NCBI GenBank assembly: GCA_964402695.1
Contig: CAYODK010000006.1
Span: 2,125 to 66,124, forward strand
DNA length: 64,000 bases
Source: an uncultured Verrucomicrobiota bacterium
GTDB taxonomy: Bacteria; Verrucomicrobiota; Kiritimatiellia; PWTM01
Reading direction: 5' to 3'
Below are positions 18,640-63,815 of the stretch, piece by piece; position 1 is the first letter of the stretch; the number at the start of each line of letters is the position of its first letter. A program made the position numbers and the translations under genes. The notes under the pieces were generated by a model that worked only from the letters and a program-made list of their open reading frames with translations, was not told where the DNA came from and ran no database searches.

Positions 18640-18643
18640 GGCG

Positions 18644-44441: not shown

Positions 44442-44470
44442 CAGCTTGGTATCTTGCGGAGGCTCCAGCC

Positions 44471-45127: not shown

Positions 45128-45164
45128 AGCCGCGGCGCGCCCGGCACGGACCGGGGCGTCGGAC

Positions 45165-45902: not shown

Positions 45903-45914
45903 GGAAGGACTACG

Positions 45915-47384
45915 ATGCCGGACATGAGAAAGAGGATGCTCGCCGCCGCGCTCGCGATCGCCGCGGCGCTGCCCGCCGGGGCGCAGGCCGCGGACGACTT
46001 CTACAAGGCGCGGCTCCAGGAAGGGCGGATCGCCTACGAGACGGGGAACGCGGCGGAGGCCGCGGACCTCCTCCGGATAGGCTGCTTCGGCCTGATGGAC
46101 CACCCCGCGCTTCTCTCGGAGGGGCTCGCGTGGCTCGCGCTCGCGCAGGTGAAGGCGGGGCGCGCGGCCGACGTGGACGGGACGGTGCGGCGCTTCCTCG
46201 AGGTTGAGAAGCGGTTCGGGGTGTGGGCGAAGGCGGCCGTGTCGGACGGCGCGCGGAAGGAGTTCGAGGCGCTCCTCGCGCGGCGGCTGCCGCCCGAGGC
46301 GCTCGCCTCGGTGCCGGCGCTCGCGGGGCTCGTGGAGACCGACGAGCAGAAGATCGCGAAGCTCGCGCCGCGGGAGCGGCGGCGGGCGCTCGAGGCGAAG
46401 GCGGCCGCGGAGCCGGCCGAGAAGAAGTGGGTGCTCGCCCTCGCGCGGCTCGCGGCCGAGGCGGGGGAGCCGAAGGAGACGATCCGCCAGGCCGGGAAGG
46501 CGATCGAGCTCGACCCGCAGGACCTCGAGGCGCGGCGCCTCAGGGCCGCGGCGCTCATGGCGCGGAAGAGCTGGGCCGAGGCGCTCGCCGACCTCGACGC
46601 GCTGCCGCCCGCGCTCCTCGCGTCGCAGCCCGCGCTCAGGGCCGACCGGTTCGTCTGCCTCGCGGCGGGGAAGCAGTGGGACCTCGCGCGCGAAGCGGCG
46701 GCGGGGCTGCCGGAGGACCAGCTCGCGCGGGCGGACGTCGCCGCGGCGATGAGGAAGGTGCCGGCGGCGCCGCAGGCGCCCGCGGCGGAGGAGGCAGCGG
46801 GCGCGACGGGAGCGCAGGGGGCGCCCGCGGCGGCGCCTGCGGTGGCGGAAGGGGCCCGGGCCGCGACGGTCGAGAGCGTTCCGGCCGCGCGGGCCGAGGC
46901 CGCTGCGGCACCGCCCGCGACGCCGCCGGCGGCCCCTCCGGGAAGCCGGACGGCAGCTGTGCCGGGCGCGGCGGCGCCGGCGGCGGGCGCCGGGGGCCCG
47001 GGGGCTCCGCAGGCGGCGGCCTCGATCGACGCGCTCAAGGTCCAGATTCGCGACGCGCTGAAGGCGGGGGCTCCCGACAAGGCGAAGGGGATCGCGATGG
47101 GAGCCGTCGCGGCGCGCCCGGACGACCGGGAGGCCCGCAAGCTCCTCCTCGAGGCGGCCTGCATGTCGCGCGACTGGAAGACGGTGGCCGCGCAGGCGCG
47201 GCTCCTCGCGCCGTTCCGCGACGGCGAGGAGCCGTCGATGTTCTACGGCGCCGTCGGGCTCTACGAGACGGGGGCCGTCGAGGAGGCCCGGCCGCTCATG
47301 CAGCGGGCGCGTCCCCGCGTCGCGCAGACGCCGTTCGTGAACTACTACGCCGATCGTCTGCTCCGCGACGGGACGCCGCAGTGA
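45915..47384 (+). CDS. Secreted TPR-like repeat protein
   Basis: Signal peptide, Ala-rich helical repeats, a low-complexity AP-rich middle. Confidence 0.45.
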   Translation: MPDMRKRMLAAALAIAAALPAGAQAADDFYKARLQEGRIAYETGNAAEAADLLRIGCFGLMDHPALLSEGLAWLALAQVKAGRAADVDGTVRRFLEVEKRFGVWAKAAVSDGARKEFEALLARRLPPEALASVPALAGLVETDEQKIAKLAPRERRRALEAKAAAEPAEKKWVLALARLAAEAGEPKETIRQAGKAIELDPQDLEARRLRAAALMARKSWAEALADLDALPPALLASQPALRADRFVCLAAGKQWDLAREAAAGLPEDQLARADVAAAMRKVPAAPQAPAAEEAAGATGAQGAPAAAPAVAEGARAATVESVPAARAEAAAAPPATPPAAPPGSRTAAVPGAAAPAAGAGGPGAPQAAASIDALKVQIRDALKAGAPDKAKGIAMGAVAARPDDREARKLLLEAACMSRDWKTVAAQARLLAPFRDGEEPSMFYGAVGLYETGAVEEARPLMQRARPRVAQTPFVNYYADRLLRDGTPQ

Positions 47385-47516
47385 CGGTCGCGGGCTCGCC
47401 GGCAGCAGCGTCTGCCGCGGCGGTCGCAGCGGCGGCAACGCGCGGAACTGTCGGTTCGGAAACGTTGACCGGGCGCTGTCGCGCCGACTAAAGTCCGGGA
47501 AAAGGGAGGAATCCGT

Positions 47517-48464
47517 ATGCAGTCCTGGAGGCGGTTCGGATCCCGGTGGCCGGTGCGCCGGGGCGCCGGCGCCCTGGTCGTGGCGGCTCTCCTCGTCGCG
47601 CTCGCCCCGGGGTGCGTGACGACGAACGAGGTCGCGAAGTCGTACCCGAACGACGAGCGGTACACGAAGCTCCTCGACGACGTCGCGAAGATCTACGAGA
47701 CGCGGGACACCTCGAAGATCATGGACCTCTACGTCCAGGACACGTACTCCCTCTCGTTCGACCAGACGACGGCGTTCGACTCCGGCGCGGCCGACCACAA
47801 GGGGACGATTGCGCGGCTCTTCGACGGCGTCGAGGACCTGAAGGTGGAGTGGAGCCCCGACGTGACCGTCGACAAGACTTCGGAGAAGGTCTGGACGACG
47901 CGCCACTTCAAGGCGACCGCGCTGATGGCGAACGGCGAGAAGCGCGAGATCTCGGGCTGGCACAGCGCCATCTGGGTGGAGCGCGACGGCAAGGACCTGA
48001 TCGAGTACGAGCACTTCCGCGCCGACACGCGGATCACCGCGATGCCGCCTCCGCCCCCGCCGCCGGCCGGGCCGCCGCCGCTGACGCCGGAGGCGATCGA
48101 GGCGCAGGCGCGCGACTCGATCCGCGACATCTTCTTCGACTACGACAAGTGGGACATCCGCGACTCCGAGCTCCCGAGCATCAACGTCGTCCTCGACTAC
48201 CTGAAGAAGTACCCGACGACGGAGATCACGATCGAGGGGCACTGCGACGAGCGCGGCTCGACCCGCTACAACATCCGCCTCGGCCAGAAGCGCGCCGACG
48301 AGACGAAGAAGTGGCTCGTCGCGCAGGGCATCGCGCCGGAGCGGCTCCGGACGATCTCCTTCGGCAAGAGCCGGCCGTTCGAGGTCGGGCGCTCGGAAGA
48401 CGCCTGGCAGTCGAACCGCCGCTCCCACTTCGTCGTCACCAAGGGCCCGACCTTCGACAAGTAG
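47517..48464 (+). CDS. OmpA-family lipoprotein with an N-terminal NTF2-like (SnoaL/DUF4440) domain
   Basis: Lipobox LAPGC, poly-Pro linker, C-terminal OmpA_C (GHCDERGSTRYNIRLGQKRA). Track start 47518 is inconsistent with its own length; the ATG is at 47517. Confidence 0.8.
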   Translation: MQSWRRFGSRWPVRRGAGALVVAALLVALAPGCVTTNEVAKSYPNDERYTKLLDDVAKIYETRDTSKIMDLYVQDTYSLSFDQTTAFDSGAADHKGTIARLFDGVEDLKVEWSPDVTVDKTSEKVWTTRHFKATALMANGEKREISGWHSAIWVERDGKDLIEYEHFRADTRITAMPPPPPPPAGPPPLTPEAIEAQARDSIRDIFFDYDKWDIRDSELPSINVVLDYLKKYPTTEITIEGHCDERGSTRYNIRLGQKRADETKKWLVAQGIAPERLRTISFGKSRPFEVGRSEDAWQSNRRSHFVVTKGPTFDK

Positions 48465-50282: not shown

Positions 50283-51661
50283 AGGTCGTCCACGACTCGC
50301 TGCCGTTCTCGGTCGGCGGGGTTGAGGTGTACGTCCAGCGCCTCTCCGAGGCGCTTGCGGACAGGGGAGTCGAAGTCGGCGTCTTCTCGGCGGTGGACTG
50401 TGCCGGAAGGCGTCCGTACGAGGCGGCGCTCGTCGAGGGGCGCGTGCCCGTGTACTCCGTGGCTCATCGTCTCGGCAGCCACGGGCAGGGCCTTGGGCAG
50501 GTCCTGCTCGACTCCAGCAGGTTCTACCTGGATCCCGCGGTCGACGCGGCATGCGCCGTGGTCGTGGAGACGTTTCGTCCGGATGTGATCCACATCCACC
50601 ACCTGGTGCATCTGTCGGGCTCTCTCATCGGGATGTTGAAGAGAATGGGGCTTCCGGTCGTCGTGACACTTCACGATTACTGGTACCTCTGCATCACGGG
50701 ACAGCTCCTGAATGACGGGGGCGCCCACTTCCCCGATCGGTGCGGAGCCCCCTGCATCGCATACGTCCTGCACAACCGCTACAAGGCTACGGGATGGCTC
50801 CGGTGGGGCCTTCGTCGCGCGATCGGCCTGGCACCGCTCGCCTTCGAGGGGCTTCACCGAAGACGCCGGGATCGCCTCCTGGCGGAGCTGAACTCGGCTG
50901 ACCGAGTCCTCGCCCCATCCCGGTTCATCGCCGAGGTGTACTGCGCGGCCGGACTCTCGGCTTCCCTGGTCTCCCATTCTCCCTACGGTGTTCCTTCCTC
51001 GTCGATCCCGAGGCGCGACGAGACCCGGACGGCAGGTGCGGGGCTTCGTGTGGGCTTCCTCGGGCGCATCGTCCCCGAGAAGGGACTTCACGTGCTTCTC
51101 GAGGCCTTCGACAGGCTCGACGACTCGTTCGAGCTGCACGTTCACGGGGTCGAATCGCGATCGTCGGGCTATGCCAGCCGCCTGTCGGGACGAATGAAGT
51201 CATCGAGGGTCCAGCGGCATGGACCCTACGATCACGAATGCGTCGGGGAGGTCTTGTCGGGCCTCGACGTCCTCGTGGTGCCCTCGGTGTGGTGGGAGAA
51301 CGCTCCCCTCGTGATTCTCGAGGCCTTCGCGGCGGGCGTCCCCGTCGTCGCTTCGAATCTGGGTGGGATGAGAGAGCTCGTCCGACATGGCGAGAACGGC
51401 CTCCTGTTCGAGGTGGGAGACTCCGACGCCCTCGCAGAGGCGCTTCTCCGGCTCAGGCACGAACCCGGGCTGCTCGCGTGCCTGCGGCGGGACCCGGTTC
51501 TGACGAGGAGCCTGGCCGAGAACGCTGACGAGCTGGAAGGGCTCTATTGCTCGCTCGTGGCGGAGCGGTCACCGGTCGAGGGCCGAGCCACGGGCGCCCC
51601 GAGGCTCGGGCTGCGAGAGAAGGGCACGAGATTCGGGCCGGCCGGCATCCGGCAGCCGTGA
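50279..51661 (+). CDS. GT-B glycosyltransferase (GT4), non-canonical start
   Basis: The conserved N-terminus (L)KVVHDSLPFSVGGVEVYV begins at a CTG overlapping the upstream TGA (CTGA). No in-frame ATG, GTG or TTG nearby. Confidence 0.6.
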   Translation: MKVVHDSLPFSVGGVEVYVQRLSEALADRGVEVGVFSAVDCAGRRPYEAALVEGRVPVYSVAHRLGSHGQGLGQVLLDSSRFYLDPAVDAACAVVVETFRPDVIHIHHLVHLSGSLIGMLKRMGLPVVVTLHDYWYLCITGQLLNDGGAHFPDRCGAPCIAYVLHNRYKATGWLRWGLRRAIGLAPLAFEGLHRRRRDRLLAELNSADRVLAPSRFIAEVYCAAGLSASLVSHSPYGVPSSSIPRRDETRTAGAGLRVGFLGRIVPEKGLHVLLEAFDRLDDSFELHVHGVESRSSGYASRLSGRMKSSRVQRHGPYDHECVGEVLSGLDVLVVPSVWWENAPLVILEAFAAGVPVVASNLGGMRELVRHGENGLLFEVGDSDALAEALLRLRHEPGLLACLRRDPVLTRSLAENADELEGLYCSLVAERSPVEGRATGAPRLGLREKGTRFGPAGIRQP

Positions 51662-53220
51662 GCTGCGAGCTGGGACAGGACTCGTCGGAGCTGGTCCGTG
51701 TATCGGGGTATCTCGGCGACGCGGGCGAGTCGTCGGCATCCGTCCTCGGCCCTCCCGTCGGCGAAGTCCATGCCCGCCAGGTCTTCGAGTGAGGGCGTGT
51801 GGTCCGGCAGGACTTCGATCATCTTCTCGAGGAGCGCCCGCTTCCGACCCTGGTCCATCGTCTCGGACGAGAGCGCGTGCCACGGAGCGGCGTACCGCGG
51901 ACGCAGCGCGAGGAGCGAATTCAGAACGCGGGTGGCGTCCTCGTGGCGGTCGCACCTGGCGTACGAATCGGCGAGCAGGAAAGCCGTCCACGCATCGCCT
52001 GGGTGAAGTGCCAGGACGCGCTCGTGGAACGCCGTACGGCCCTTCGGGTCCGCCGCGAGCTCGTTCCGGCGAGAAGCAGCTTCGTGGCGGAGGGCCAGCT
52101 CGTCGGCGTAGCCGGGGTCCGGCGAACGCGATCGTCCGCGCAGGAGCCCTGCCCGACCGAGGAACGCTACCGTGTCGCGGGCCGCGAGTTCGTGTGCAAA
52201 GGCGTTGGGGTGAAGGTCGGCCTCGGAGACGACGAGCACCGTGTTCTGTCCTTCGCGTTGGAGCGTCCCAGAGAGGTCAATCACCGGCAGGCGTAAGGAC
52301 TGAAGCGAGGCGACGAGCTGCCTGTAGGGCTTGTCGGCCTTGATGCCGAGTGCGCGCGTCTCAGCGCTCACGGGACCGTGCATGAGGTTGGGGAAGACGA
52401 CCGCTGCAAGGGGGACCCCTGCAGCCCGGCGAAACGATTCCATCTGCCGGAACGTCTCCTCCGCGACACGCCATTCGGCTGATCCGGGGCGATAGGCATT
52501 CTCGAAAGCCTCGAGAGCCGCGTCGATCCTCGAAGACTCGTCGGCGATTCTGGTGGCTGTCAGAGACCGGCCGAGACGGCCCGCGAGGGTGGGGGCCGCC
52601 TCGGCCCAGGCCTGGCCGACGCTCCACGGGTCCACGAGCGCGATGTCGTTCCAGAAGATCTGCCAGAGGACGAGGTCGGGCTTCAGGTCGGCTCCGTGGA
52701 CGAGAAGCTTGATGAGGTTGTCCGCGTGCCTGTGGCCGCAGACGCCGAGGTTGATGACCTCGGGTGTCAGGCCGTTCGGAAGCCGACCGTCGCCCAGAAG
52801 CGTCTCGAGACGGGAGGCCCACGTCTCCTCCATCGCCACGCCCTGGCCCCAGCTGAACGAATCGCCGACGACGACGATCCGGAAGGTCCCGGGCCTCCGC
52901 GAGATGGTGTACTCGGGGGTCCTGAAGCCGTTCGAGTTGTGAAGCGCACGCGCGTCGGGCTGCGAGCTGAACGGTATCGTCGTGGCCAGGAGGTCCGTCG
53001 GGGATGCCTCGAACGGGAAGTACCACGGCGTGGCCATGTACGCACTCGCGCCCGCGGGGCCGGTATCGGCCGACTCGGCAGGCCTCGGGAGGGAAGACAG
53101 TCGGGGCCTGTGGAAGGCCCGCAGGAACGCCTCGGCCGCGACCAGGGCAGCGACCGTCCCCAGCAGGATCGCCGCGAGCTTGAACACGGTTACCCGGCGT
53201 GGACGGGGGTAGCCGGTCAC
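51544..53220 (-). CDS. Membrane-anchored SGNH/GDSL hydrolase-fold protein with a C-terminal TPR-like domain
   Basis: IVVVGDSFSWGQG block I, N-terminal TM. Overlaps the 3' end of the convergent GT4 by about 118 bp. Confidence 0.55.
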   Translation of the reverse strand: MTGYPRPRRVTVFKLAAILLGTVAALVAAEAFLRAFHRPRLSSLPRPAESADTGPAGASAYMATPWYFPFEASPTDLLATTIPFSSQPDARALHNSNGFRTPEYTISRRPGTFRIVVVGDSFSWGQGVAMEETWASRLETLLGDGRLPNGLTPEVINLGVCGHRHADNLIKLLVHGADLKPDLVLWQIFWNDIALVDPWSVGQAWAEAAPTLAGRLGRSLTATRIADESSRIDAALEAFENAYRPGSAEWRVAEETFRQMESFRRAAGVPLAAVVFPNLMHGPVSAETRALGIKADKPYRQLVASLQSLRLPVIDLSGTLQREGQNTVLVVSEADLHPNAFAHELAARDTVAFLGRAGLLRGRSRSPDPGYADELALRHEAASRRNELAADPKGRTAFHERVLALHPGDAWTAFLLADSYARCDRHEDATRVLNSLLALRPRYAAPWHALSSETMDQGRKRALLEKMIEVLPDHTPSLEDLAGMDFADGRAEDGCRRLARVAEIPRYTDQLRRVLSQLAAHGCRMPAGPNLVPFSRSPSLGAPVARPSTGDRSATSEQ

Positions 53221-56200
53221 CGTCCGCTCCGGAGCCAGGCGGACCTAAGTCCGGCGAGGCGATGGACGCACCGCTTCAGGATGGGCGTTTCGAGAGCGTG
53301 GCGAATGGCGCGCTCGGAGGACGGAGCTGCCCTTCCGACTCGCGCCAGAAGGCGCTCTCCCAGGTAGGTTGCGGCCTCGAAGGACGGATGCCTCGGGAAG
53401 CGCCCGAGACCGCGCACCTCGACACACTCGACCGGGAAGAGGCTGACCCCGGCAACGGTTGCGGGCGGAGGTGCGAGAGGTCCTTGCCTCCGCCGGAAGA
53501 CGCCTCGGCGGGAGTCGTCGAGGACCTGCTGGAACAGCTTCACGTAAGCGTCGACCATGTTCTCGATCCGGAAGCTCCCGCTGAGAAGCCTCTCCTGTGC
53601 GCGCTGGGACATTCTGCTTCTCAGGTCGGCGTCGCCCGCGAGGCGCACGATCCGGTCGGCGAACTGGTCGATGTCCCCGACGGGAACGATGAAACCCTCC
53701 TCTCCGTCGCGGACGAGCTCGGGAATACCGCTCCGGATGGCCGAGACGACGGGTATGCAGCCCCGGCCCATGGCCTCCAGGAGGGCGTTCGGCAAACCCT
53801 CGAACGACGAGGTCATCAGGTACACGTCCTGGCTTTCGAGTACGCGGAGCGCATCTTCGTTCGACAGGACTCCGAGCATCCGAATGGCGCCGCGATCGGC
53901 GAGCTCTCGGGCAGCGCTGCGGAACGCGTCTTCGTCCGGCCCGGCTCCAATCACGGTCAGGACAGCGTCCACTCCCCGGTTCAGAACGGCGCGAACGATC
54001 TCCGGGAGGTCGAGGATGCGCTTCTGCCGGACGTTGAGGACGCCGTGATAGACGAGCCGGAGCTGTCCGCCCGCTTCGCGGGCGGGTTTCGGAGCTTCTC
54101 CGGGAAGGCAGATTCCGTACGGGATCGTGTGAAGACGCGCAGCGCACCCCGGGTCGATCCCCACGGCCTTCTCGGCGATCTCCTGACTCACGGCCACCAC
54201 CGCATCCCAGTACCTCCCTTGTCGGGCGAGGTGGTCGTAATGGAGGGGATCGTCCCCGTGGAGGATCCCCACTACCGAGACCCGTCGCGGCAATCGCGGG
54301 GCGACGCACGACTGCCGCCAGTCGTAGTTCGGAAGGTAGACGCACGGTGCGCTCTCCTCGAGGAGGCGCTGCATCGCGGCCCAGCGCTTCCCCCATCCGT
54401 CGGTCCGACCGACGGGCAGGTACCGGACAGGCAGATCCGGTGGAAGGGGCATGGGAGGGTCGGGAATCGAGATCAGGTCCGTCCGCTCCTCCGTGAGGAG
54501 GATCTCCGCCTCGGTCCCCTGTGCGCGAAGCCCTCGCACGAGATTCGCTGCGAAAACCGTCACCCCCGTGAGGGTCCAGTAGGGCAGCGCCACGACGACC
54601 CGAAAGTCACGGATCTCGGCGCGCCGGGCCGCCGTCACGGCGGCCTGCTGCACCTCCCGCGGCGTTGGGCTGCGCCGCATCTCGTCGAAGTCGATCCTGT
54701 CCCGGCGACTCGGGAAAGCGCCGAGCCCGGGGACGACGTGCGAGCACGGAATGGGGAAGATGCCGAGGCCGTCGATCTCCGGGGGGGGGGGAGAGATAGC
54801 TCCCGCAGCCCTGACGAAACGTCCCTCGCGAGCGTCTTCAGCGACCCGCTCGCACAGCTCGCCCCAGCGGCGGGACATCTCCTGGACGCTGTGCGGACCG
54901 CCGGCGACGATCTCGAAGGAGCGGCGGGCCATCCTCGACCGGAGGGCCGGATCGGAGGCGAGTTCCTGCAGCCGGCGCGCGAAATGGTCGAGGTCGCCGA
55001 TGGGTGCGGTGAAGCCGCTCTCACCGTCGCGAACGAGCTCCTGGAGCGCGCTTCGGGTCCGCGAGACGACGGGGACACAGCCCCGCCCCATCGCTTCGAG
55101 GAGAGCATTCGGCATTCCCTCGAACTCCGAGGTCATCAGGAAGGCGTCGTGCTCCTCGAGCATGCGCAGGACGCCTCGATTGGGGAGGACCCCCGCGAAC
55201 CGGACCCGTCCACGCTCCGCGTGGTGGTCCAGCAGGTCCCGCAGCTCGGGTTCCTGGCTTCCACCTCCCGCGAGGGTCAGCACGAACGGAACGCCAAGCG
55301 ACTCGAGACGGTCGAGAATCCCGACGAGGTCGAGGATCCGTTTCTGTCGCTGGTTCAGAAGGCCGTGGTAGACGATTCGGAGGGCGCCCCCGGGGTCCGT
55401 GGCGTGCTGCGGCAGGCTCTCCGGAACCTCGACGCCGATCGGGATCGTCAGGAGCCGAGGCCGGAAGGACGGGTCGATCGCCGCGGTCTGGTCCTCGACG
55501 GCACGGCTGACGGCGACGATGGCGTTCCAGCTTCGTCCGAGGCGTGCGACATGGTCGTAGTGCAGGGGGTCGTCGCTGTGGACGACGCCGGCGACGGCGA
55601 CACTCCCGCTGAGCAGGGGGGAGATGCAGGAGTGCCTCCAGTCCGCGTTCGGCACGTAAACGCAAGGCGAGCGCTCTTCCAGATAGCGAATCATGGCGCC
55701 CCAGTGCGCGCCCCAGCTCGCCTGGGGACTCACGGGAAGGTAGGAAACCGGGAGGTCGTCCGGGAGCGGGAGGCGTGGGTCCTCGACGCTCACGAGGTGC
55801 GTTCGCTCCTCCGTCAGCAGGAGCTCGGCGTCGAAGCCGATGCTCCGGAGGCCGCGGACGAGGTTCGCCGAGAAGATGTTGACTCCGTTCAGAGTCCAGT
55901 AGCTCGCAGCGACGACGACCCTTGGTCGCACGTTCTTCCTCCATGTCTCCCGAGTCAGATCGCTCGTCCGCGCTGGCCGGGAGTCCTTTCGCAATCCGAA
56001 ACGTCCCGCCCGGGTTCCGAGCGAGAGCGCATCCACGAAGAGCCTTGCGCATTCCGCAGCGCGGACTCGGATTTCGGAGTAGAAGAGAACGAGGTGGCCT
56101 GCCGCTACGAGGAGGTAGCTCGTGTCTCTCCAGGCGAGCGAGCCAAGGAGTACCAGCGACAGCCAGGCCTGGTAGAAGCCGGCCGGGAGCACGTAGGCCC

Positions 56201-57044
56201 CGTGCGAAGCCGGGGCCGGGTCTGGGCGCACGCCCCAGACTCTCCAGCGGACGGCGTCTACGCCCGCACTTACAGCAAGGGCTGCGAAAGGCGCGACACC
56301 TGGCGAACCCTGAGAGGCGAACCACGCGGCGAGGACGAGGGCTTCGGCCGGGAAGACGACGCGGTGGATGACTCGGCGAACTCGATCGGGCCGCTGTCCG
56401 GCAACGAAGGTCCGCACGCCGCCCGCCTTGTCCGCTTCCCGGTCCCAGAGCTGGTGGAGGAGGATGCCCCGGGTTCCAGTGAGGAAGGACCACGCGATTG
56501 CGAGTGCGGCCGGTACGCCGAGGCTGCCCTCGCCGAGAACCCACGACGCAGTCGCCGCCGGGAAGGTGTGGACGGCCAGCGAGTCCGCGAGTACCCCAAG
56601 GAGGGACCGTTCCTTCAGCCGGACGGGAGGGGCCGAATAGGCGCCCGCAAGGGCGAGATTCGCGATCACCAGCGCGACGCCCATGGACCCCGCGCCGGCC
56701 AGGAATACCGGCAGGACGCTCACCACCGCGAGGAACAGGAGGGCGCCGGCGACTGCTTCCCTGCGTACCGTCCGTATTCGGGTGGGCCGTCCGGCTCGCC
56801 GATCCGCATCCGAGTCGAAGAAGTCGTTCGCCAGATATCCGAAAGCGCCCAGCGCCGACGTCGAGATCAGGATCGCCAGAAGGCGGGGGCCCGAGGACGA
56901 AGACGGTGACCGGCAGACGAGCGCCTGCGCGTAGCCGACCGCGAGCGCCATCGGGACCTTCGACGAGAACCACTCGCCGGCCCGCACGCTCGCGACGACG
57001 GTCCGGACATCGAGAACGGCACGGCTGAGAGCACGTCGTTTCAC
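53217..57044 (-). CDS. Tri-domain fusion: UbiA-superfamily prenyltransferase-like membrane domain plus two tandem GT4 glycosyltransferase domains
   Basis: UbiA motifs NDFFDSDADRRAGRP and WDREADKAGGVRT in a roughly 330-aa TM domain. There are two roughly 400-aa GT-B repeats, each ending EGMPNALLEAMGRGC(V/I)PVVS. 1275 aa. Confidence 0.65.
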   Translation of the reverse strand: MKRRALSRAVLDVRTVVASVRAGEWFSSKVPMALAVGYAQALVCRSPSSSSGPRLLAILISTSALGAFGYLANDFFDSDADRRAGRPTRIRTVRREAVAGALLFLAVVSVLPVFLAGAGSMGVALVIANLALAGAYSAPPVRLKERSLLGVLADSLAVHTFPAATASWVLGEGSLGVPAALAIAWSFLTGTRGILLHQLWDREADKAGGVRTFVAGQRPDRVRRVIHRVVFPAEALVLAAWFASQGSPGVAPFAALAVSAGVDAVRWRVWGVRPDPAPASHGAYVLPAGFYQAWLSLVLLGSLAWRDTSYLLVAAGHLVLFYSEIRVRAAECARLFVDALSLGTRAGRFGLRKDSRPARTSDLTRETWRKNVRPRVVVAASYWTLNGVNIFSANLVRGLRSIGFDAELLLTEERTHLVSVEDPRLPLPDDLPVSYLPVSPQASWGAHWGAMIRYLEERSPCVYVPNADWRHSCISPLLSGSVAVAGVVHSDDPLHYDHVARLGRSWNAIVAVSRAVEDQTAAIDPSFRPRLLTIPIGVEVPESLPQHATDPGGALRIVYHGLLNQRQKRILDLVGILDRLESLGVPFVLTLAGGGSQEPELRDLLDHHAERGRVRFAGVLPNRGVLRMLEEHDAFLMTSEFEGMPNALLEAMGRGCVPVVSRTRSALQELVRDGESGFTAPIGDLDHFARRLQELASDPALRSRMARRSFEIVAGGPHSVQEMSRRWGELCERVAEDAREGRFVRAAGAISPPPPEIDGLGIFPIPCSHVVPGLGAFPSRRDRIDFDEMRRSPTPREVQQAAVTAARRAEIRDFRVVVALPYWTLTGVTVFAANLVRGLRAQGTEAEILLTEERTDLISIPDPPMPLPPDLPVRYLPVGRTDGWGKRWAAMQRLLEESAPCVYLPNYDWRQSCVAPRLPRRVSVVGILHGDDPLHYDHLARQGRYWDAVVAVSQEIAEKAVGIDPGCAARLHTIPYGICLPGEAPKPAREAGGQLRLVYHGVLNVRQKRILDLPEIVRAVLNRGVDAVLTVIGAGPDEDAFRSAARELADRGAIRMLGVLSNEDALRVLESQDVYLMTSSFEGLPNALLEAMGRGCIPVVSAIRSGIPELVRDGEEGFIVPVGDIDQFADRIVRLAGDADLRSRMSQRAQERLLSGSFRIENMVDAYVKLFQQVLDDSRRGVFRRRQGPLAPPPATVAGVSLFPVECVEVRGLGRFPRHPSFEAATYLGERLLARVGRAAPSSERAIRHALETPILKRCVHRLAGLRSAWLRSGR
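54781..54791. repeat. G11/C11 homopolymeric tract inside the UbiA-GT4-GT4 coding sequence
   Basis: 11 consecutive G on the + strand, encoding PPPP at the linker between the GT4 repeats. Confidence 0.9.
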
Positions 57045-58378
57045 GAAGGCGGGCCCGAACTGCTCCTTCGCCGAAAGCCGAGCCGCCCGAAGTACCGCCG
57101 CGCGTGTCCCGACAGGAGCGATCGGACCGGCGGGAGGTGGTCGAGCCAGGGAGGAGGAAGCCCGAGCGGGGAGCGGACGGTCCCGGGCGGCCGCCGGAAG
57201 GAACCCGTCGAAAGGTCGTGCCAGACCTGATCGAATAGCGCCGTGTAGGCGTCGACCATTCCATCGAGGTTGAATCTGTCGGCGACGGTGCGGTGAGCCG
57301 CCGCGCCCATCGCGGCTCGTCGAACCGGGTCGGACTGCAGGACTTCGAGCCGGGCAGCGAAGGTTCTCACGTCACCAACACGGACTCGGAAGCCGTTCTC
57401 GCCGTCGGCGACGAGCTCCGGGATGCCGCTTCTGATGTCGGAAACGACCGGCACGCAACCTCGGCTCATCGCCTCCAGGAGCGCGAGGGGCAGCCCTTCG
57501 AACTCGGACGCGAGGACGAAGGCGTCGGCCCGTTCGAGCTCGAGGAGGATGTCGTCGTTGGAGAGCGTGCCCAGGAGACTGGCCTGGCCACGACCGACGA
57601 GGTCTCCGAGGGCCCGTTCGAGATTCGTCCGATCCGCTCCGTTCCCCGCGATTCGCAGCTCGAAGGGGACGCCCTGGAGCGCCAGATGTCGAGCGATGGC
57701 GGCGACGTCGAGGACACGCTTCTGGTGCTGGACGATCCGGCCCGCGTAGACGATTCTGAGGGGGGCACCCGGGCGGGAGACGCGCTCGGGGAAGGCCTCC
57801 GGGCATGGAATCCCGTACGGGATCGTTCGCATCCGAGGGACCAGGCGGGGCGTCTGTTTCGCGATTGCCGCGGACACGGCGTCGCTGACCGCGACGATGC
57901 CGTTCCAGGAGGCGCCGAGTCTCGCAACGTGTTCGTAGTGGTCCGGGTCGTCGCTGTGGGCTATGCCGACGACGGCGACGGAATCCGGGAGGACCGGGCT
58001 GACCCCGGAATACGCGTAATCGTAGTTGGGGATGTAGACGCACGGCGAGAGCTCGGCAAGGTAGCGCCCGAGAGTGCTCCACCGCTCGTTCCATCGATGG
58101 TGAAGACGGACCGGGAGTCGATCGAAGCGGAGATCGGCAGGGAGGGGAATGGGGTTCGTCCGGCGTGTCGACGGCCTCGTGAACAACAGGCGGGCATCGA
58201 AACCGCGCGATCCCAGCGCACGCGCCATGTGGAACGAGAACGTGTCTACACCGCTCAGCTCCCCGGAAGTCAACCCGATCACGACCCGGTATTCCGGGCC
58301 GTCCTTACGGGCAGAGCCATTTCGCGGTTGGGCCGGTTCCGCGAATCGACGGTTCATGACGTCTGTCCCCATTATCAT
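57041..58378 (-). CDS. GT-B glycosyltransferase (GT4), third paralog of the tandem repeats in the upstream fusion
   Basis: Same subfamily signatures (EFEGLPLALLEAMSRGCVPVVSDIRSGIPELV). ATGA-coupled to the fusion gene. Confidence 0.8.
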   Translation of the reverse strand: MIMGTDVMNRRFAEPAQPRNGSARKDGPEYRVVIGLTSGELSGVDTFSFHMARALGSRGFDARLLFTRPSTRRTNPIPLPADLRFDRLPVRLHHRWNERWSTLGRYLAELSPCVYIPNYDYAYSGVSPVLPDSVAVVGIAHSDDPDHYEHVARLGASWNGIVAVSDAVSAAIAKQTPRLVPRMRTIPYGIPCPEAFPERVSRPGAPLRIVYAGRIVQHQKRVLDVAAIARHLALQGVPFELRIAGNGADRTNLERALGDLVGRGQASLLGTLSNDDILLELERADAFVLASEFEGLPLALLEAMSRGCVPVVSDIRSGIPELVADGENGFRVRVGDVRTFAARLEVLQSDPVRRAAMGAAAHRTVADRFNLDGMVDAYTALFDQVWHDLSTGSFRRPPGTVRSPLGLPPPWLDHLPPVRSLLSGHARRYFGRLGFRRRSSSGPPS

Positions 58379-58390
58379 ATCGCCTGCCGA

Positions 58391-61300
58391 ATGAAACGAG
58401 CGCTCTTGTTCGTGTTGACGCTTCTCTGCGGGGCGAACGTCGCAGGAGCACCGGCAGGCACCGTTCCGTCGGCGGAGTTTCTTCGCGAGTTGCAGAAACG
58501 ATCCTTCGCGACGTGGACCTCCAGGTCAGAGCAGGAAATCCTCGAACTGTACGACCCGGGCGCGGATGTCGTCCTCTACGGCCCGCAGCTTGCTCGTTTC
58601 GTCGGTGCGCAGGGGCACGTCTCCTTCCTGCTGAGCCTGGTGCGGGACTGGCAGTTCTGCGAGTTCGTCCCGACCGGAGAGCCTTTCGTCGTCGCGGGGC
58701 GCGATCTGGCCTCGACGGCCACAACCTGGAGGTTGGAAGGGGTCACGAGGGATGGGCGTCCGGTCACATACGAAGGACGATGGACGAATGTCTGGGTTCG
58801 GAAAGGCGGCCGCTGGCTGATCGCGCACGAGCACGTCTCTTTCACCAGCTTTCCTGCGGTAGCCTCCTCTGCCATTCAGGGGACTCCCGTGCCCCGCCTT
58901 CCCGGTCTCCCCGAGCCGTCCCGCCTTCCCCTCCTCGAGCAGGAAGGATCTCCGTCGTCGACGGGCCGGCTCTCGAGCGCGCCTCTGATCGGCCTGGTCC
59001 TTTCGGTAGTGGCGATACTGCTCTGCGGATGGGCCGTCATGGCCGTTCGGAAGCAGGCGCGTGGCTCGCTGCTCGGCATGGCTGCTGCGCGGTCCCGTGG
59101 GAGGCTCGTCGGGCTCCTCTTGCGGATTGGACTACGGGTCGAATCGGTGGACGGCCTCGGGCGGACGCCCCTGATGATGGCCGCGAAAGCCGGGAAGGTC
59201 GACATCTGCCAGAGACTGCTCGCAGCGGGCGCGAGGGTGGATGCGCAGGACGAGTACGGAGCGACAGCCTTGCACCATGCGGCGGTCGGCGGAGACCTCG
59301 CAACGGTCGCGCTACTCCTCGAGAGCGGGGCAGACCCCCTGACCGAGACGCCCATGGGAAGGACCGCTGCCGACATCGCGGCTCTTCTCCATCAGGAGCG
59401 CATCTCAGATCTGCTTGCGTCGGCCACAGCGGCGGCAGGAGGCTCTCAGCCCCGTCCGGCCCTGGATCGCCCGCGCAGTCCCGGGCCTCAGCGAATCCGC
59501 GGCGCCTCTTGTCCGCGCTGCTCGGAGTCGCACAGGCTCGTGCTGTCCAGAAGCTACCGTCGCTGGGAAGTCCTCGTTCGGCGCGTCCTGCCCCTCGAGT
59601 TCGTACGCTGTCCCTCCTGCCTGTGGAGAGGCGCCCTCTCGAAGCGGTCGTTCTCTCTCGAGAGCCCTCCGCCAGGGGGTGTCGAGAGCGTACCTTCGAG
59701 CGACGTCGCCCCCTCCGATCGGCCGGAGCCGATGCCGGCGCCGGCGCCGCGGCCTGCAGAGGGTGGCAAGCTCCATCCACGGATCGACGGGGTCTCTTGC
59801 CCGAAGTGCGGCGCCGCGGGTGGGCTCGTTCTCTCGAGAAGCAGACGTTCGTGGGAAAACGCCGTGCGCAGCCTCCTCCCCTTGCAGTTCGTTCGGTGCC
59901 ACCGCTGCCGCTGGCGTGGCCCTGTTCACATGCATCGTCGCGGCGTGTCAGCCCCCGCGAGCCTCGGCGAGTCCGCCACTCCGGGTGGCTCGCGGCCAGA
60001 ACGAACGTCGTGGCCGGGCAGCCTCATCGTCGTCCTCGTCGCGCTCGCCCTGGTGGACCTCTTTCTCCTGGTGCGCCTGTTCCCGCCCTTGACGACGGAC
60101 GAGGTCTACTTCAAGGGAACGGCGTATCACCTGGCGACCACCGGGCGATGGGCGAACCCGTTTGTGGGACTGGCCGGGAACGGACCGGGTGATGGGCTCG
60201 TCCCGTATCCGCCCCTGTTCATGGTCGCTCTTGCCGGATGGTTCAAATTGTTCGGCCTGGGAGGCTATCAGAACCATGCGTTCGTCCTCCTGCTTCACTG
60301 GATGACCGCTCTTCTCGCTGGCGTCCTGACGCTCCGGCTCGTGGAGACGCGTCGAGGTCTCTGGGCTTCGATGGCCGCGATCGGAGCCTTCTGCTATTAC
60401 CGGCTGGATCGGACCGACGTCCTCGCCGGCGTCCTCGTCCTTGCCAGCGTCCTCCTCCTGCTAGAGTCGCTCGATGGCTCGGCCGGGCACGGCTCGCGGG
60501 CACGGCCCGTGCTCCTGCTCGGGCTCCTCGCGACGTTTCTGGTCGGCCCCGCGGCGACGCTTCTCTATGGCGCGGTCCTGTCCGTCTTCGTGATCCGCAG
60601 CGGGCTAGCTTGGGTGAGCGTTCGATCGCTGCTGCTGCAGCTCGCCTCGTGTGCCCTCCTCGCTGTCGCGAGCTCGTGGGCGCTTTCTGCGGAGACATTC
60701 AGCACGCTCGCCCGGCAGATCCTTGGTGCCGTCGCCACGGGACTTCGTCATCCGTTCCGTCTGACCGGAGCCTTCTCCTGGTCGGACGCCGTGTTCGTGC
60801 CGTGGTTCGTCGCGCTCGGGATCGCGCTCCTCCTTTCCCGCAGAACGCCTGCGGGAGCAGACCGCTCCAGACGAGCCGTCGCTCTCGCCGAAGCGACGAT
60901 CTTCGGTGTGCTCGTCTGGCTCTTGTTGACCCCCAAGGCCGGCACCTATTTGCACCTGCTCTTACCCCTGGCGGTCGTCGCGGTCGTGGCGATCACAGCG
61001 GGGCTGTTCCCCCGGGCCAGGCTGGCGCCGGTGGCGATCGCTCTGGGATGCCTGCTGCCCGGCCTCCTGCTCGCACTGCTCACCCTTGCACGCGCGACGA
61101 CGATCGATGACAGGGAGCGCTACTCGAGTGCGGCGAAGGCGGTGGAGAAGTACGTGCCAGCGGGGGAGCTCGTTGCCGGCGACGGGTGCCTCTGGACGGT
61201 CTTCGCTGGACGAAACCCCTTCGTCGACGCGGGCTGGGCGCCTCACGCGGCAAGGGACGCCCGGTGGATCGTCTCGACGGGAATCGGGACGGGCCGGGCG

Positions 61301-61507
61301 GGCCTGAGCGTCGTCGAGGCGCGCCCGGGAGTTCTTCGTGGCGGGGAGGAGGTCGTTTTCGACGGGATACTCAGGGAGCCGCAGCGCATTTCCGGCATCC
61401 CTCTCGGCCGCAGCCGGCTCGGATACGGAATTCGGATCTACCGTTCGCCGGCGGCACCGGACCTGCAGCGCGGCTCGGCCGCTCGAGCCGAAGGAACCGT
61501 GCGATGA
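58391..61507 (+). CDS. Multi-domain membrane protein: NTF2-like (DUF4440) exported domain, TM, ankyrin repeats, two CxxC...CxxC zinc-ribbon-like repeats, C-terminal GT-C-like (ArnT/PMT-type) polytopic glycosyltransferase domain
   Basis: Signal peptide MKRALLFVLTLLCGANVAGA. ANK motifs GRTPLMMAAKAGKVDICQRLLAAGA and GATALHHAAVGGDLATVALLL. Duplicated CPRCSESHRLVLSRSYRRWE...CPSCLWRG and CPKCGAAGGLVLSRSRRSWE...CHRCRWRG. About 11 C-terminal TM helices with YFKGTAYHLATTGRWANPF. A single uninterrupted 1038-aa frame. Confidence 0.6.
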   Translation: MKRALLFVLTLLCGANVAGAPAGTVPSAEFLRELQKRSFATWTSRSEQEILELYDPGADVVLYGPQLARFVGAQGHVSFLLSLVRDWQFCEFVPTGEPFVVAGRDLASTATTWRLEGVTRDGRPVTYEGRWTNVWVRKGGRWLIAHEHVSFTSFPAVASSAIQGTPVPRLPGLPEPSRLPLLEQEGSPSSTGRLSSAPLIGLVLSVVAILLCGWAVMAVRKQARGSLLGMAAARSRGRLVGLLLRIGLRVESVDGLGRTPLMMAAKAGKVDICQRLLAAGARVDAQDEYGATALHHAAVGGDLATVALLLESGADPLTETPMGRTAADIAALLHQERISDLLASATAAAGGSQPRPALDRPRSPGPQRIRGASCPRCSESHRLVLSRSYRRWEVLVRRVLPLEFVRCPSCLWRGALSKRSFSLESPPPGGVESVPSSDVAPSDRPEPMPAPAPRPAEGGKLHPRIDGVSCPKCGAAGGLVLSRSRRSWENAVRSLLPLQFVRCHRCRWRGPVHMHRRGVSAPASLGESATPGGSRPERTSWPGSLIVVLVALALVDLFLLVRLFPPLTTDEVYFKGTAYHLATTGRWANPFVGLAGNGPGDGLVPYPPLFMVALAGWFKLFGLGGYQNHAFVLLLHWMTALLAGVLTLRLVETRRGLWASMAAIGAFCYYRLDRTDVLAGVLVLASVLLLLESLDGSAGHGSRARPVLLLGLLATFLVGPAATLLYGAVLSVFVIRSGLAWVSVRSLLLQLASCALLAVASSWALSAETFSTLARQILGAVATGLRHPFRLTGAFSWSDAVFVPWFVALGIALLLSRRTPAGADRSRRAVALAEATIFGVLVWLLLTPKAGTYLHLLLPLAVVAVVAITAGLFPRARLAPVAIALGCLLPGLLLALLTLARATTIDDRERYSSAAKAVEKYVPAGELVAGDGCLWTVFAGRNPFVDAGWAPHAARDARWIVSTGIGTGRAGLSVVEARPGVLRGGEEVVFDGILREPQRISGIPLGRSRLGYGIRIYRSPAAPDLQRGSAARAEGTVR

Positions 61508-62613
61508 GCGTCGCGCTCGCCGAGCTCGAGGAGAAGGCGGAGGGCCTCGTCTCTTACCTGGAGTCGAGGCTTCGGAAACAGGGTCGGTTCCGCACGCTTC
61601 GTCGGTTCCTCGGCGACGTGGGGAGCTACGCGAGGCCCACTGAGTACGACGGCTGGTACGAGTTCGGGGACTGCCCGTTTGCGGCGGCGAGCATCGCCAT
61701 CCACTTGCCCTTCCTCGGGGACGAGCGCCTCGCCGAACTCGGTCGACAGGTCTGCGAATACCTCGTCCCGGCGCTCGAAAATGGGATCGCGCGGTACGCG
61801 ATGCGGAGAGACGGGCCGATTCCATTCCCGGCAGACGTTGAGGACACGTGCCTCGTCGGCGCCGCGCTTCGGGCCAATGGCTTTCCGGTCGCCTTGAACG
61901 TGAACATGATCGCGGCCAACGTCGATTCGCGCGGACGCTTCTACACCTGGCTTGTGCCCCGGCTGCGCCATTTGCGCCATCCTCGCAACTTCCTCTGGCT
62001 CTGCCGGGACCAGAGGCGTTGCCGAGCGCTCATGAAGTCATACGGGACTTCGCGCGGCCGTCTCTCACAGATGGCGAACGAGTATCGAATCAGCCGCGAG
62101 CCGGCGGTCGCTGCGAATGTGCTTCTCTGTCCCGAGGTTCGCGGACGGTGTCCGGCGGCCGTCACGGCTCTGGTGGAGCAGGTCCTCGATGGAGACATGC
62201 CGCAGCAGTACTACGGAAGTCGGCTTGCTGCCTGGTTTCACCTGGCGCGGCTGTCTGCGGCTCGCGTCGAGCCGATCGGTGCCATCAAGGCCATCGCTGC
62301 GAAGGAGCTTGCGTTGGCCCAGAGGGAGGATGGCTCCTGGGGTACTCCGTTTCAAACGGCCATGGGTTTGCTGGCCTCGATGTACCTCGGTATCGGGAGC
62401 GCTGAGTCGCGCGAGCGAGGGGTCCGGAATCTCCTGAGACTCGAATGGCACGAGAAGGGCTGGGTCCCCTTTCCGTACTACAACGACCTCTACGACGTCT
62501 TCGAGGACGGAAGTGCCGAGCTCACAGCCGTTCTGGTCCTGGAAGCTCTCCTGCGCTGGCGATCGTCCCGTGGGGAACGAGGAGACCCCGTCGCGACCTT
62601 CACCGCTCTATAG
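61504..62613 (+). CDS. Hypothetical protein, possibly alpha/alpha-toroid (prenyltransferase/terpene-cyclase-like, QxxDGSW motif)
   Basis: ATGA-coupled to the upstream gene. QREDGSWGTPF resembles QW motifs. Weak. Confidence 0.35.
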   Translation: MSVALAELEEKAEGLVSYLESRLRKQGRFRTLRRFLGDVGSYARPTEYDGWYEFGDCPFAAASIAIHLPFLGDERLAELGRQVCEYLVPALENGIARYAMRRDGPIPFPADVEDTCLVGAALRANGFPVALNVNMIAANVDSRGRFYTWLVPRLRHLRHPRNFLWLCRDQRRCRALMKSYGTSRGRLSQMANEYRISREPAVAANVLLCPEVRGRCPAAVTALVEQVLDGDMPQQYYGSRLAAWFHLARLSAARVEPIGAIKAIAAKELALAQREDGSWGTPFQTAMGLLASMYLGIGSAESRERGVRNLLRLEWHEKGWVPFPYYNDLYDVFEDGSAELTAVLVLEALLRWRSSRGERGDPVATFTAL

Positions 62614-62789: not shown

Positions 62790-63815
62790 TCATCGAGGTG
62801 GGCCGAAGGAGGCGAGGTCGATGGTCACGTTCCGTTGCCCTTCGAAGAGGAGGGGACAGGACGAGCAGACCCCGCTGCCAGAGGCGAGCGCCCGCCGCAG
62901 GGCCTCAAATGGTTCCGAGCCCCATATTTCGTCGAGTCGTTGTCGTGAGAGGTCGCCCAGCTTCTCGGACGCTCGCCGCGGGTTGACCAGAGTGAACCAG
63001 CACGGGTAGACGCTTCCATCGATAGCGACATTCACCTGGTCCGTCGGAAAGCGACAGGGCCGGAACTCGTACTCTCTCGGGCCGGTGAACTGGACTTCTA
63101 TTCCCAGTCTTGCGGCCTCTTTCGTCGCAGCCGCGAGCACGGCGCGGAACGCGGGGCTCTCCAGGTCCACGCGCGGCCCATCGTAGTCGCTCAGGTAGTA
63201 GGTGCTCATGAAGTACACCCGGTACATCCCCAGCTTCGCGGCGAAGGCGACCGCTCCCGGCATGTCCGCGACGGTGTCGGACGTCACCACCCAGGCCACG
63301 CTGCAGGCAGGACGGGCCGAGGACCGAAGGCGCTTGACTTCGTTCAACTGTGCGATGCTCCCGAGCACCCTCCCGAAAGCGTCGCTCTGCCTGACTCGCC
63401 GGTAGCTCTCCGCGTCGAGGGTCTCGATCGAGACGATGACCTCGTCGACGCCGATCTCTACGAGCGTCGCGATGTCCGCGGGCGTCGGCAGAGAGAAGTT
63501 CGTGAAGAAGCTCATGTGCAGATCGGGATGCGTCTTCCGGGCATGCGAGAGAATCGCGGTGAACTCCGGGTTCGTGAAGGGCTCGCCCAGCCCGAAGAAG
63601 ACCAGCCCGGGAAGGAAGCCGCCTCCGAAACCCAGGTTCCCGAGGATTCTTTGGAAGACCTCGAGGGACATCGCGGTCCCCACCTGCTGAGGCAACTTCT
63701 GCCGAATGCAGTGAATGCACCGGAAGTTGCAGCGGGTAGTGATCTCCACATAGCAGACGGAAGGAAGCCCGGGCGCCGGGGTTTCGGAAGGAGGCGTTCG
63801 ATGCCCTTCACTCAT
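62790..63815 (-). CDS. Radical SAM enzyme with a C-terminal SPASM/twitch-like Cys cluster
   Basis: CNFRCIHC (CxxxCxxC) near the N-terminus, GLGEP, C-terminal CxxxxxxCxxC. 341 aa. Confidence 0.8.
   Translation of the reverse strand: MSEGHRTPPSETPAPGLPSVCYVEITTRCNFRCIHCIRQKLPQQVGTAMSLEVFQRILGNLGFGGGFLPGLVFFGLGEPFTNPEFTAILSHARKTHPDLHMSFFTNFSLPTPADIATLVEIGVDEVIVSIETLDAESYRRVRQSDAFGRVLGSIAQLNEVKRLRSSARPACSVAWVVTSDTVADMPGAVAFAAKLGMYRVYFMSTYYLSDYDGPRVDLESPAFRAVLAAATKEAARLGIEVQFTGPREYEFRPCRFPTDQVNVAIDGSVYPCWFTLVNPRRASEKLGDLSRQRLDEIWGSEPFEALRRALASGSGVCSSCPLLFEGQRNVTIDLASFGPPR

Follow-up and report, generated by a model that had tools for sequence, protein, structure and literature searches.

In the biosynthesis of merosterolic acid in Scytonema, a UbiA-type prenyltransferase works with the single-domain cyclase MstE, and in that of platensimycin the class II cyclase PtmT2 works with the UbiA-like synthase PtmT1; in both pathways, a membrane enzyme of the UbiA superfamily is paired with a class II terpene cyclase on the same isoprenoid chain. 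In glycan assembly, the E. coli O9a terminator WbdD acts beside WbdA, a polymerase with two GT4 modules. Enzymes with a UbiA fold, an N/D Mg2+ site and a role in the envelope glycan have been described as well, namely the decaprenyl-phosphate phosphoribosyltransferase (DPPRS) Rv3806c of M. tuberculosis (PMC10994848) and ORF15 of C. youngae O1, in which a HAD phosphatase is fused to a UbiA-type PPPRS within an O-antigen locus (PMC11127046). Here we analyse a locus that shares features with each of these systems, found in a stretch of 64,000 nucleotides (hereafter the window) from an uncultured Verrucomicrobiota bacterium (Kiritimatiellia, PWTM01; assembly GCA_964402695.1, contig CAYODK010000006.1, positions 2,125 to 66,124, forward strand). 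At its center lies a gene that fuses a UbiA-superfamily membrane domain to two tandem GT4 modules. All functional statements are computational inferences. With a probability of roughly 0.35 for the model as a whole, we read the fusion protein as a membrane-anchored core enzyme that would join a terpenoid lipid to a sugar chain, in concert with a cyclase-like partner (termed X), further GT4 enzymes and an ABC exporter.

The fusion gene (53217..57044, minus strand, GTG start) encodes 1275 amino acids in the order UbiA domain, GT4a, GT4b. Its membrane domain (aa 1–350; 55995..57044, minus) matches PF01040 at aa 41–270 (E = 4.8e-17; 62.5 bits, with the gathering score at 34.2) and carries the motifs NDFFDSDAD (aa 73–81; nt 56802–56828), YSAPPVRLK (nt 56613–56639), and DREAD (aa 201–205; nt 56430–56444). 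The two GT-B modules follow—GT4a (aa 372–790; 54675..55931, minus), assigned by Pfam and Foldseek, and GT4b (aa 812–1225; 53370..54611, minus), assigned by its identity to GT4a—and Pfam reports Glycos_transf_1 and Glyco_trans_1_4 twice each along the fusion, plus Glyco_transf_4. A third GT4 paralog of 445 aa (Up; 57041..58378, minus) was likewise found by Pfam. An AlphaFold2 model of aa 1–1200, computed from 80 aligned sequences, reached a mean predicted local distance difference test (pLDDT) of 90.8 and a predicted template modelling score (pTM) of 0.73, with the linker after the UbiA domain and the tenth helix confidently modelled. A first-pass annotation of the bare sequence had described this very set of parts, that is, a UbiA domain with both Asp-rich motifs, two full GT4 modules and a third paralog; Pfam and the motifs bear it out, and the block EGxPxALLEAM that it had quoted occurs in all three GT4 copies alongside the two Asp-rich motifs in the UbiA domain. 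It had, however, called the third paralog the next gene, which holds for the subfamily but not for the position, as Up, read in transcription order, precedes the fusion. A 1236-aa open reading frame (ORF) on the plus strand over the same DNA has a low-complexity translation rich in R, G, P, and E, and we took it to be a GC-rich shadow ORF.

The fusion gene is real, conserved, and under selection. A search of ~5.8 billion proteins retrieved, besides an identical protein, ~20 further clusters that covered 94–96% of the query at 36–50% identity, nearly all of them with precomputed PF01040 and GT4 domains. These clusters stem from different sources and phyla, and the full-length architecture is present in Gemmatimonadota, Acidobacteriota, and Massilia. 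Among contigs representing one genome per species, unbroken fusions were seen in a Gemmatimonadaceae metagenome-assembled genome (MAG; locus L009) and in Massilia (L012). When 21 full-length proteins were aligned, N73, D74, D77, D81, Y136, S137, P140, K144, D201, D205, E642, and E650 proved invariant or nearly so, and the ten UbiA-domain positions among them were invariant over 19 homologs. A missed stop or frameshift joining separate genes, an objection that the first-pass annotation had itself raised, could appeal to the separate-gene versions in other genomes (L011) and to an Acidobacteriota MAG (L013, 9917–13649) in which the UbiA part of the homolog is spread over two reading frames; the latter split is a frameshift or assembly error and accounts for the truncated protein P0047. 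In the window, however, the reading frame runs uninterrupted over the whole fusion and its codon-position GC content is coding-like (GC at third positions, GC3, of 0.81 for the fusion and 0.79 for Up; GC2 of 0.51 in both). Given the ~20 independent clusters with the same continuous architecture, the conserved motifs, and the confident model, linker and tenth helix included, such an artefact is excluded for practical purposes.

That the N-terminal part belongs to the UbiA superfamily, rather than to some other polytopic family without the catalytic Asp residues as the first-pass annotation had considered, follows from the above-threshold PF01040 profile, the two Asp-rich motifs with their invariant Asp residues, and the predicted polytopic, all-helical fold. 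When 1.84 billion cluster representatives were searched exhaustively with the profile, 1109 of them matched at E<=1e-30, and these form a large UbiA subfamily that is without a characterised member. The best NCBIfam match of the domain was a sub-threshold one to PRK12875, 'prenyltransferase' (48.6 bits against a cut-off of 205), followed by ChlG, MenA, EboC, HPT, and DGGGPS; no DPPRS model appeared among the matches at E<=1. Against PDB sequences, a profile built from 19 domains found chlorophyll synthase (ChlG; 1e-7), DGGGP synthase (9e-7), and AfUbiA (3e-5), remote matches located mostly in the first half of the domain that cannot assign its substrate, and it did not find Rv3806c, which is a weak negative because the same search also missed other UbiA structures. 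With these nearest solved relatives the domain shares NDxxDxxxD, YSxPPxxLK, and DxxxD, and two of them perform O-prenylating chemistry (ChlG forming an ester, DGGGP synthase an ether); unlike them, the subfamily has a C-terminal region of its own with further conserved motifs, for example W..P.FEP...SRE.Y.PL.NNE.YEVWLP.

Modelled with a pLDDT >90 over most of aa 20–270, the UbiA domain places both Asp motifs (after predicted helices 2 and 6) and the YSxPPxRLK loop on loops rich in K and R, and from its sequence it looks active. From AlphaFold2 and hydropathy, ten transmembrane helices are predicted, compared with nine in the structures of Rv3806c and archaeal UbiA proteins (PMC10994848). Since members of the subfamily are fused to cytoplasmic GT-B domains at either the N- or the C-terminal end, both termini must be cytoplasmic, which takes an even number of helices; the extra helix in the model, the tenth, would thus permit a cytoplasmic fusion at the C-terminus.

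The three GT4 copies are about 65% identical at the DNA level, in keeping with the 60–70% estimated in the first-pass annotation, and their protein identities over about 390–400 aa amount to 53% (GT4a/GT4b), 46% (GT4a/Up), and 45% (GT4b/Up). All three retain an intact EX7E motif, contained in the EGxPxALLEAM block named above (GT4a E642–E650, nt 55095–55121; GT4b E1082–E1090, nt 53775–53801; Up E294–E302, nt 57473–57499), and the two Glu residues of GT4a are invariant across the family. In Foldseek, the modelled GT4 fold matched BshA, PimA, and MshA with target-normalised TM-scores of 0.70–0.77. By Pfam domain, predicted GT-B fold, and EX7E motif, the modules are putative retaining GT-B glycosyltransferases. 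According to a neighbour-joining tree without support values and to identity tables of the GT4 units, most family members have a highly conserved first module (a-type) and a divergent second one (b-type) that is devoid of the first Glu of EX7E and may therefore be inactive or altered in function. The window and its closest relative, P0002, depart from this rule in that their second module is an a-type copy, with a mean identity of 50% to other a units versus 36% to other b units; Up is a-type too, whereas the GT4 genes found upstream in other loci fall into a clade of their own. In P0009, three GT4 modules are fused behind the UbiA domain. Sequence comparison therefore upholds one half of the 'ancient triplication' proposed in the first-pass annotation: the duplication is old, but the three intact a-type copies of the window look like a lineage-specific amplification rather than a family-wide ancestral triplication. 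Each a-type unit ends in a Pro-rich tail (fusion aa 741–780 and 1180–1215; Up aa about 393–420) whose pattern, F-R-R-P-x-G-x-L-x-P-P-P...G-x-x-(I/L)-F-P-(V/I)-x-C...G-L-G-x-F-P, is conserved family-wide.

The fusion has two tandem GT4 modules and is accompanied by further single GT4 enzymes, a likeness in architecture to WbdA, which serves polymannose O-antigen synthesis in E. coli O8/O9a. WbdA, however, lacks a membrane domain of its own and depends on WbdD for recruitment, while the membrane module of the fusion is a UbiA domain that looks catalytic; WbdA also differs from most members of the present family, whose second GT4 module is without EX7E.

Fusion to GT4 is one of several architectures of the subfamily. 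Classified with local hidden Markov models, its top 150 representatives comprised 83 standalone UbiA proteins (about 340–380 aa), 31 with UbiA plus other sequence, about 13 of the form UbiA-GT4, 7 GT4-UbiA, about 9 UbiA-GT4-GT4 (one with three GT4 modules), 1 GT4-UbiA-GT4, and 6 in which UbiA is fused to X. Pfam scans and precomputed Pfam lists added MT-UbiA-PhyH and MT-UbiA-TPR (MT, methyltransferase), UbiA-TPR, UbiA-P450, and UbiA with many CBM_4_9 domains. The same parts also occur as separate genes: UbiA and GT4-GT4 are adjacent in a Gemmatimonadota locus (L011), GT4-UbiA precedes a separate GT4-GT4 gene in Azospirillum (L020, L021)—the full-length matches from L011 and L020/L021 being split or re-ordered genes—and a standalone UbiA gene lies near GT4-GT4 in L016, L022, and L025. 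Double-GT4 proteins without a UbiA domain are common and found in many genomes. Going by sequence, then, the fusion is neither rare nor unique: it recurs in public data and represents one among the many fusion architectures found in a large UbiA subfamily. The first-pass annotation had not recognised the architecture as a described one; we, too, found no description of a UbiA-GT4 fusion in the searchable literature, although it recurs in public data as 'glycosyltransferase', the only annotation borne, for example, by the homolog of Massilia sp. DWR3-1-1. In four proteins of 2000–3000 aa (P0158, P0165, P0172, and P0175), an N-terminal UbiA domain is followed by many CBM_4_9 carbohydrate-binding repeats.

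A recurrent partner of this subfamily is X, a previously unannotated single-domain protein of 369 aa (61504..62613, plus strand) that AlphaFold2, Foldseek, and motif alignment mark as class II terpene-cyclase-like. Its gene is the last of an operon divergent from the fusion operon, and its start overlaps the preceding stop. Neither SQHop_cyclase and the Prenyltrans families nor any other Pfam model matched X at E<=1, and phmmer reached squalene-hopene cyclase only at E = 0.64, by way of its QxxDGSW repeat. Its AlphaFold2 model, from five sequences, had a pLDDT of 74.5 and a pTM of 0.80, and the 34 best Foldseek matches of this model in the PDB belonged without exception to the class II terpene cyclases (E-values of 4.5e-8 to 9e-4; query-normalised TM-scores of about 0.46–0.66), with unrelated alpha/alpha toroids entering the list only from E of about 1e-3. 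The single-domain structure 8pak came first (E = 4.5e-8; TM-scores 0.60/0.63), drimenol synthase scored 0.62–0.66, and MstE (6sbg and related entries), PtmT2 (5bp8), drimenyl-diphosphate and copalyl-diphosphate synthases, squalene-hopene cyclase, and oxidosqualene cyclase were matched as well. As modelled, X is thus predicted to have the alpha/alpha-toroid beta-domain fold of class II terpene cyclases. At the position of the DxDD signature, the 13 aligned sequences of the X family share the motif P-x-D-(V/I/L)-(D/E)-(D/C)-T, which opens helix 112–124 of the model and reads D111-V-E-D-T in the window; counted along D-x-(D/E)-(D/C)-T, the first position is Asp in 13/13 sequences, the third in 12/13 (Glu in the window), and the fourth in 11/13. 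Like MstE, X is a single-domain protein of about 370 aa, but its sequence identity to MstE, 8pak, and PtmT2 is only 13–18%, and it has no Pfam model. According to a recent survey (PMC12414744), single-domain cyclases of the MstE kind are spread over many bacterial phyla, and MstE is the sole one characterised.

X is tied to the UbiA subfamily by fusion and by neighbourhood. The two are fused, in either order, in at least four clusters (P0169, P0194, P0197, and P0173; P0170 and P0177 are partial), X stands directly behind the UbiA gene in L003, L025, and L090, and it lies within 10 kb of that gene in 9/19 distinct loci, a fraction biased by the gathering of the loci with GT4, UbiA, or X queries. 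A metagenome scan with the X alignment returned three short contigs only. The window differs from the MstE and PtmT systems in its context, which is glycan assembly with GT4 and Wzm/Wzt rather than a small-molecule cluster, and in that UbiA is fused to glycosyltransferases and no aromatic-acceptor genes were seen nearby.

Beside X in the window lies a radical SAM/SPASM protein (62790–63815, minus), and radical SAM genes likewise occur close to UbiA-X in L090 and to the fusion in L092. In L005 (Chloroflexota), L006 (Tolypothrix sp. PCC 7910), and L090, UbiA and X sit beside sulfotransferases, often fused to TPR, together with P450s, APS kinase, radical SAM enzymes, and Wzm/Wzt, which suggests that these loci make sulfated versions of the same product class.

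Linkage to an ABC-2 exporter is the second recurrent trait. In 11 of the 19 distinct loci (gathered as described above), Wzm and/or Wzt genes lie no more than about 12 kb from the UbiA gene, and they directly adjoin it in L001, L005, L020, L021, L022, L025, L090, and L091. In a cultured organism, Massilia sp. DWR3-1-1, an operon-like block reads fusion-wzm-wzt(Wzt_C)-X; other orders are wzm-wzt-ubiA-X (L090), wzt-ubiA-X (L025), wzm-wzt-ubiA (L022), fusion-wzm (L091), ABC-ubiA (L005), and a divergent wzm-wzt pair in L020 and L021. In relatives, linkage to Wzm/Wzt with Wzt_C resembles the WbdA/WbdD system, and a membrane-associated partner that could set chain end or length is a further likeness. 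In the window itself, direct Pfam scans located, as a candidate exporter, Wzm (ABC2_membrane; 17812–18639, plus) and Wzt (ABC_tran; 18623–19972, plus). This Wzt is 449 aa long and matches ABC_tran at aa 66–197 only; its ~200-aa C-terminal extension, which Wzt_C does not match, may be a divergent domain for glycan binding.

We combine these features in the following model. Using two Asp-rich cytoplasmic loops, the UbiA domain, with its intact motifs and UbiA-type predicted fold, would bind an isoprenoid diphosphate via Mg2+ and transfer its chain, and X, with its cyclase-like predicted fold and motif, would cyclise that chain before or after transfer. The two fused GT4 modules and Up would then draw on nucleotide sugars to glycosylate the membrane-embedded terpenoid from the cytoplasmic side and to lengthen the chain, the SGNH/TPR protein encoded downstream of the fusion would modify the glycan, and a Wzm/Wzt-type ABC-2 transporter, tied to the system by gene linkage in relatives, would carry the finished lipid-linked glycan over the inner membrane. 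The fusion would serve to keep the first sugar-adding steps beside the site where the lipid acceptor is produced. P450, PhyH dioxygenases, and methyltransferases typically act on hydrophobic small molecules, and as other fusion partners of the UbiA subfamily they fit a hydrophobic aglycone. As the lipid, a terpenoid derived from a prenyl diphosphate is likelier than a sugar donor of the polyprenyl-phosphate type. Of the earlier proposal that one polypeptide builds a lipid-linked donor and immediately elongates it, the making and subsequent glycosylation of a lipid stays plausible.

Several points weigh against this model. X is absent from about half of the UbiA-subfamily loci, including the well-flanked fusion loci L002, L013, L091, and L092; the copy in the window has Glu as its middle acid (DVEDT), and its structural model draws on five sequences with the modest pLDDT given above. 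The co-occurrence fractions carry the selection bias already mentioned. The neighbourhoods showed no gene for a polyprenyl diphosphate synthase, and the isoprenoid donor and acceptor are not readable from the sequence. The window Wzm/Wzt genes lie about 33 kb from the fusion within another glycosyltransferase operon, so the exporter link is indirect there. Pfam also places a conventional WecA-type initiating enzyme in the window (781–2688) and, with WecA present and Wzm/Wzt distant, the fusion could act on an ordinary undecaprenyl-diphosphate-linked glycan.

That last point leads to a close rival of the lipid-anchor model, in which UbiA and X would instead place a terpenoid on the non-reducing end of a GT4-made, undecaprenyl-diphosphate-primed glycan, thereby stopping elongation and creating a mark read by the carbohydrate-binding domain of Wzt, a role akin to that of WbdD beside WbdA. 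The position of UbiA and X beside wzm-wzt in L090, L025, and L001 is that of terminator genes in known O-antigen clusters, Wzt proteins of related loci carry Wzt_C, the MT-UbiA-TPR and UbiA-TPR fusions resemble the WbdD layout of enzyme, ruler, and membrane anchor, and both the abundance of double-GT4 proteins lacking UbiA and the WecA-type enzyme agree with this reading. We nevertheless rate a terpenoid cap as less likely than the lipid anchor: UbiA-family enzymes are not known to prenylate a sugar hydroxyl, a membrane-embedded active site is better suited to a lipid acceptor than to a polymer end, the P450 and PhyH fusions are better suited to an aglycone, and the window Wzt has no detectable Wzt_C. 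The computational analysis presented here cannot separate anchor from cap.

A third reading takes up the analogy with DPPRS offered in the first-pass annotation: the UbiA domain would be a phosphoribosyltransferase of the DPPRS/PPPRS type, whose polyprenyl-phosphate sugar is either elongated or passed on as a donor. Its attractions are the surroundings rich in glycan-synthesis genes, the Mg2+ ligands N73 and D77 in common with Rv3806c (PMC10994848), albeit in common with the whole superfamily too, and the precedent of C. youngae ORF15, a HAD-UbiA enzyme fusion from an O-antigen cluster (PMC11127046). The analogy did not hold up in the comparisons made here, and we consider it improbable. The domain has no DPPRS match in NCBIfam at E<=1, where ChlG, MenA, EboC, HPT, and DGGGPS models take the weak matches instead, and the PDB profile search, for all its own weakness, yielded only ChlG, DGGGPS, and AfUbiA. 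The 19 loci have no conserved 5-phosphatase, DprE-type epimerase, flippase, or GT-C partner, and PMT_2 turned up in L002 and L090 alone; the conserved partner is cyclase-like, and both it and its fusions would go unexplained. GT4 enzymes, moreover, use cytoplasmic nucleotide sugars, whereas polyprenyl-phosphate pentoses serve periplasmic GT-C enzymes (PMC11127046). A candidate for the GT-C of a three-component pentofuranose system, the polytopic C-terminal domain (~500 aa) of an ankyrin-repeat protein (58391–61507, plus), was dropped because Pfam gave no match for it at E<=1 and none of the other loci encodes a homolog. Rated lower again is the notion that the UbiA domain anchors soluble glycan enzymes, or holds the diphosphate-polyprenyl end without prenyl transfer. 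The extremely varied fusion partners (GT4, methyltransferase, TPR, and CBM among them) and the double-GT4 proteins that in many genomes manage without UbiA would suit it, and undecaprenyl-diphosphate-linked intermediates could in principle be held at the Asp/Mg2+ site by their diphosphate. Yet every catalytic residue is invariant over proteins with only about 30% identity, which is more than an anchor needs, and 83/150 top representatives stand alone, so a pure anchor role is unlikely; nor does it explain the link with X. Taken as a whole, the interpretation given in the first-pass annotation is partly supported.

The component domains are of known kinds; the fusion, the UbiA subfamily, and the coupling of that subfamily to a cyclase-like protein and an ABC exporter are undescribed in the searchable literature. 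At the same tentative odds of about one in three as the model of the fusion, UbiA, X, GT4, and Wzm/Wzt would constitute a widespread, undescribed envelope-glycoconjugate pathway with a cyclised terpenoid as lipid anchor or terminal cap, in which the terpenoid would replace undecaprenyl diphosphate, lipid A, or a methyl/phosphate cap. The lineages in question are Acidobacteriota, Gemmatimonadota, Chloroflexota, Cyanobacteria, Proteobacteria, and Bacteroidota/Ignavibacteria-like bacteria. If this is true, abundant soil and freshwater phyla would possess bacterial surface glycolipids or capped polysaccharides of a new type, the reaction range of UbiA enzymes would widen, and terpene cyclases would gain a role beyond secondary metabolites and hopanoids. 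More immediately, the fusions and neighbourhoods tie isoprenoid chemistry to ABC-transporter-dependent glycan assembly and give an uncharacterised UbiA subfamily and single-domain cyclase-like proteins a testable context. Should the cyclase act on regular polyprenyl chains, such pathways could, speculatively, be a biological source of orphan cyclic polyprenoid biomarkers.

Turning to the immediate neighbours, the 3′ end of Up and the fusion start share 4 bp (GTGA), and the start of the downstream gene overlaps the fusion stop in the same manner (GTGA in the junction sequence); through these two overlaps, GT4, fusion, and SGNH/TPR genes form one translationally coupled unit. The downstream gene (51544..53220, minus) encodes an SGNH/GDSL-like protein of 558 aa with TPR (Pfam Lipase_GDSL_2 and TPR_19, with a faint ALGX match), which is probably an acyl-modifying enzyme for the glycan; GDSL genes are also found near the fusion in L002 and L003. 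On the other side, at a distance of about 12 bp from the divergent GT4 gene, begins the gene at 58391–61507. Its multi-part product begins with a signal-peptide-like N-terminus (MKRALLFVLTLLCGANVAG) and contains DUF4440, ankyrin repeats, and two Cys-rich repeats (SCPxC...CxxCxW) ahead of the polytopic domain mentioned above.

Annotated by direct Pfam scans, the 64-kb window consists almost wholly of envelope-glycan genes, among them many GT2 and GT4 enzymes, a pyruvyl transferase, a carbamoyltransferase, Acyl_transf_3, a Wzz/tyrosine-kinase protein, Wzy_C, CpsB, OmpA, and a cellulose-synthase-like GT2. An SGNH protein followed by an MBOAT protein (5977–8563, plus) is arranged as in AlgJ/AlgI-type polysaccharide O-acetylation systems. 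The carbamoyltransferase (Carbam_trans_N/C; 32839–34599, plus) recurs in the fusion loci L001 (21350–23188) and L002 (16390–17364), and the product may accordingly be carbamoylated. Codon composition falls into two levels, with the ORFs for Wzy_C, CpsB, TPR, and OmpA in the GC-rich part (40000–48000; 73–77% GC) at a GC3 of 0.95–0.99 and most glycosyltransferase genes, including the fusion, at about 0.8, a split suggesting that the genes differ in origin or in expression class. In the interval from the Wzz/kinase gene to Wzy_C, an ORF at 40930–42246 (minus) has a GC1 of 0.95 and no Pfam match, and the stretch 40930–42773 may be non-coding or low-complexity.

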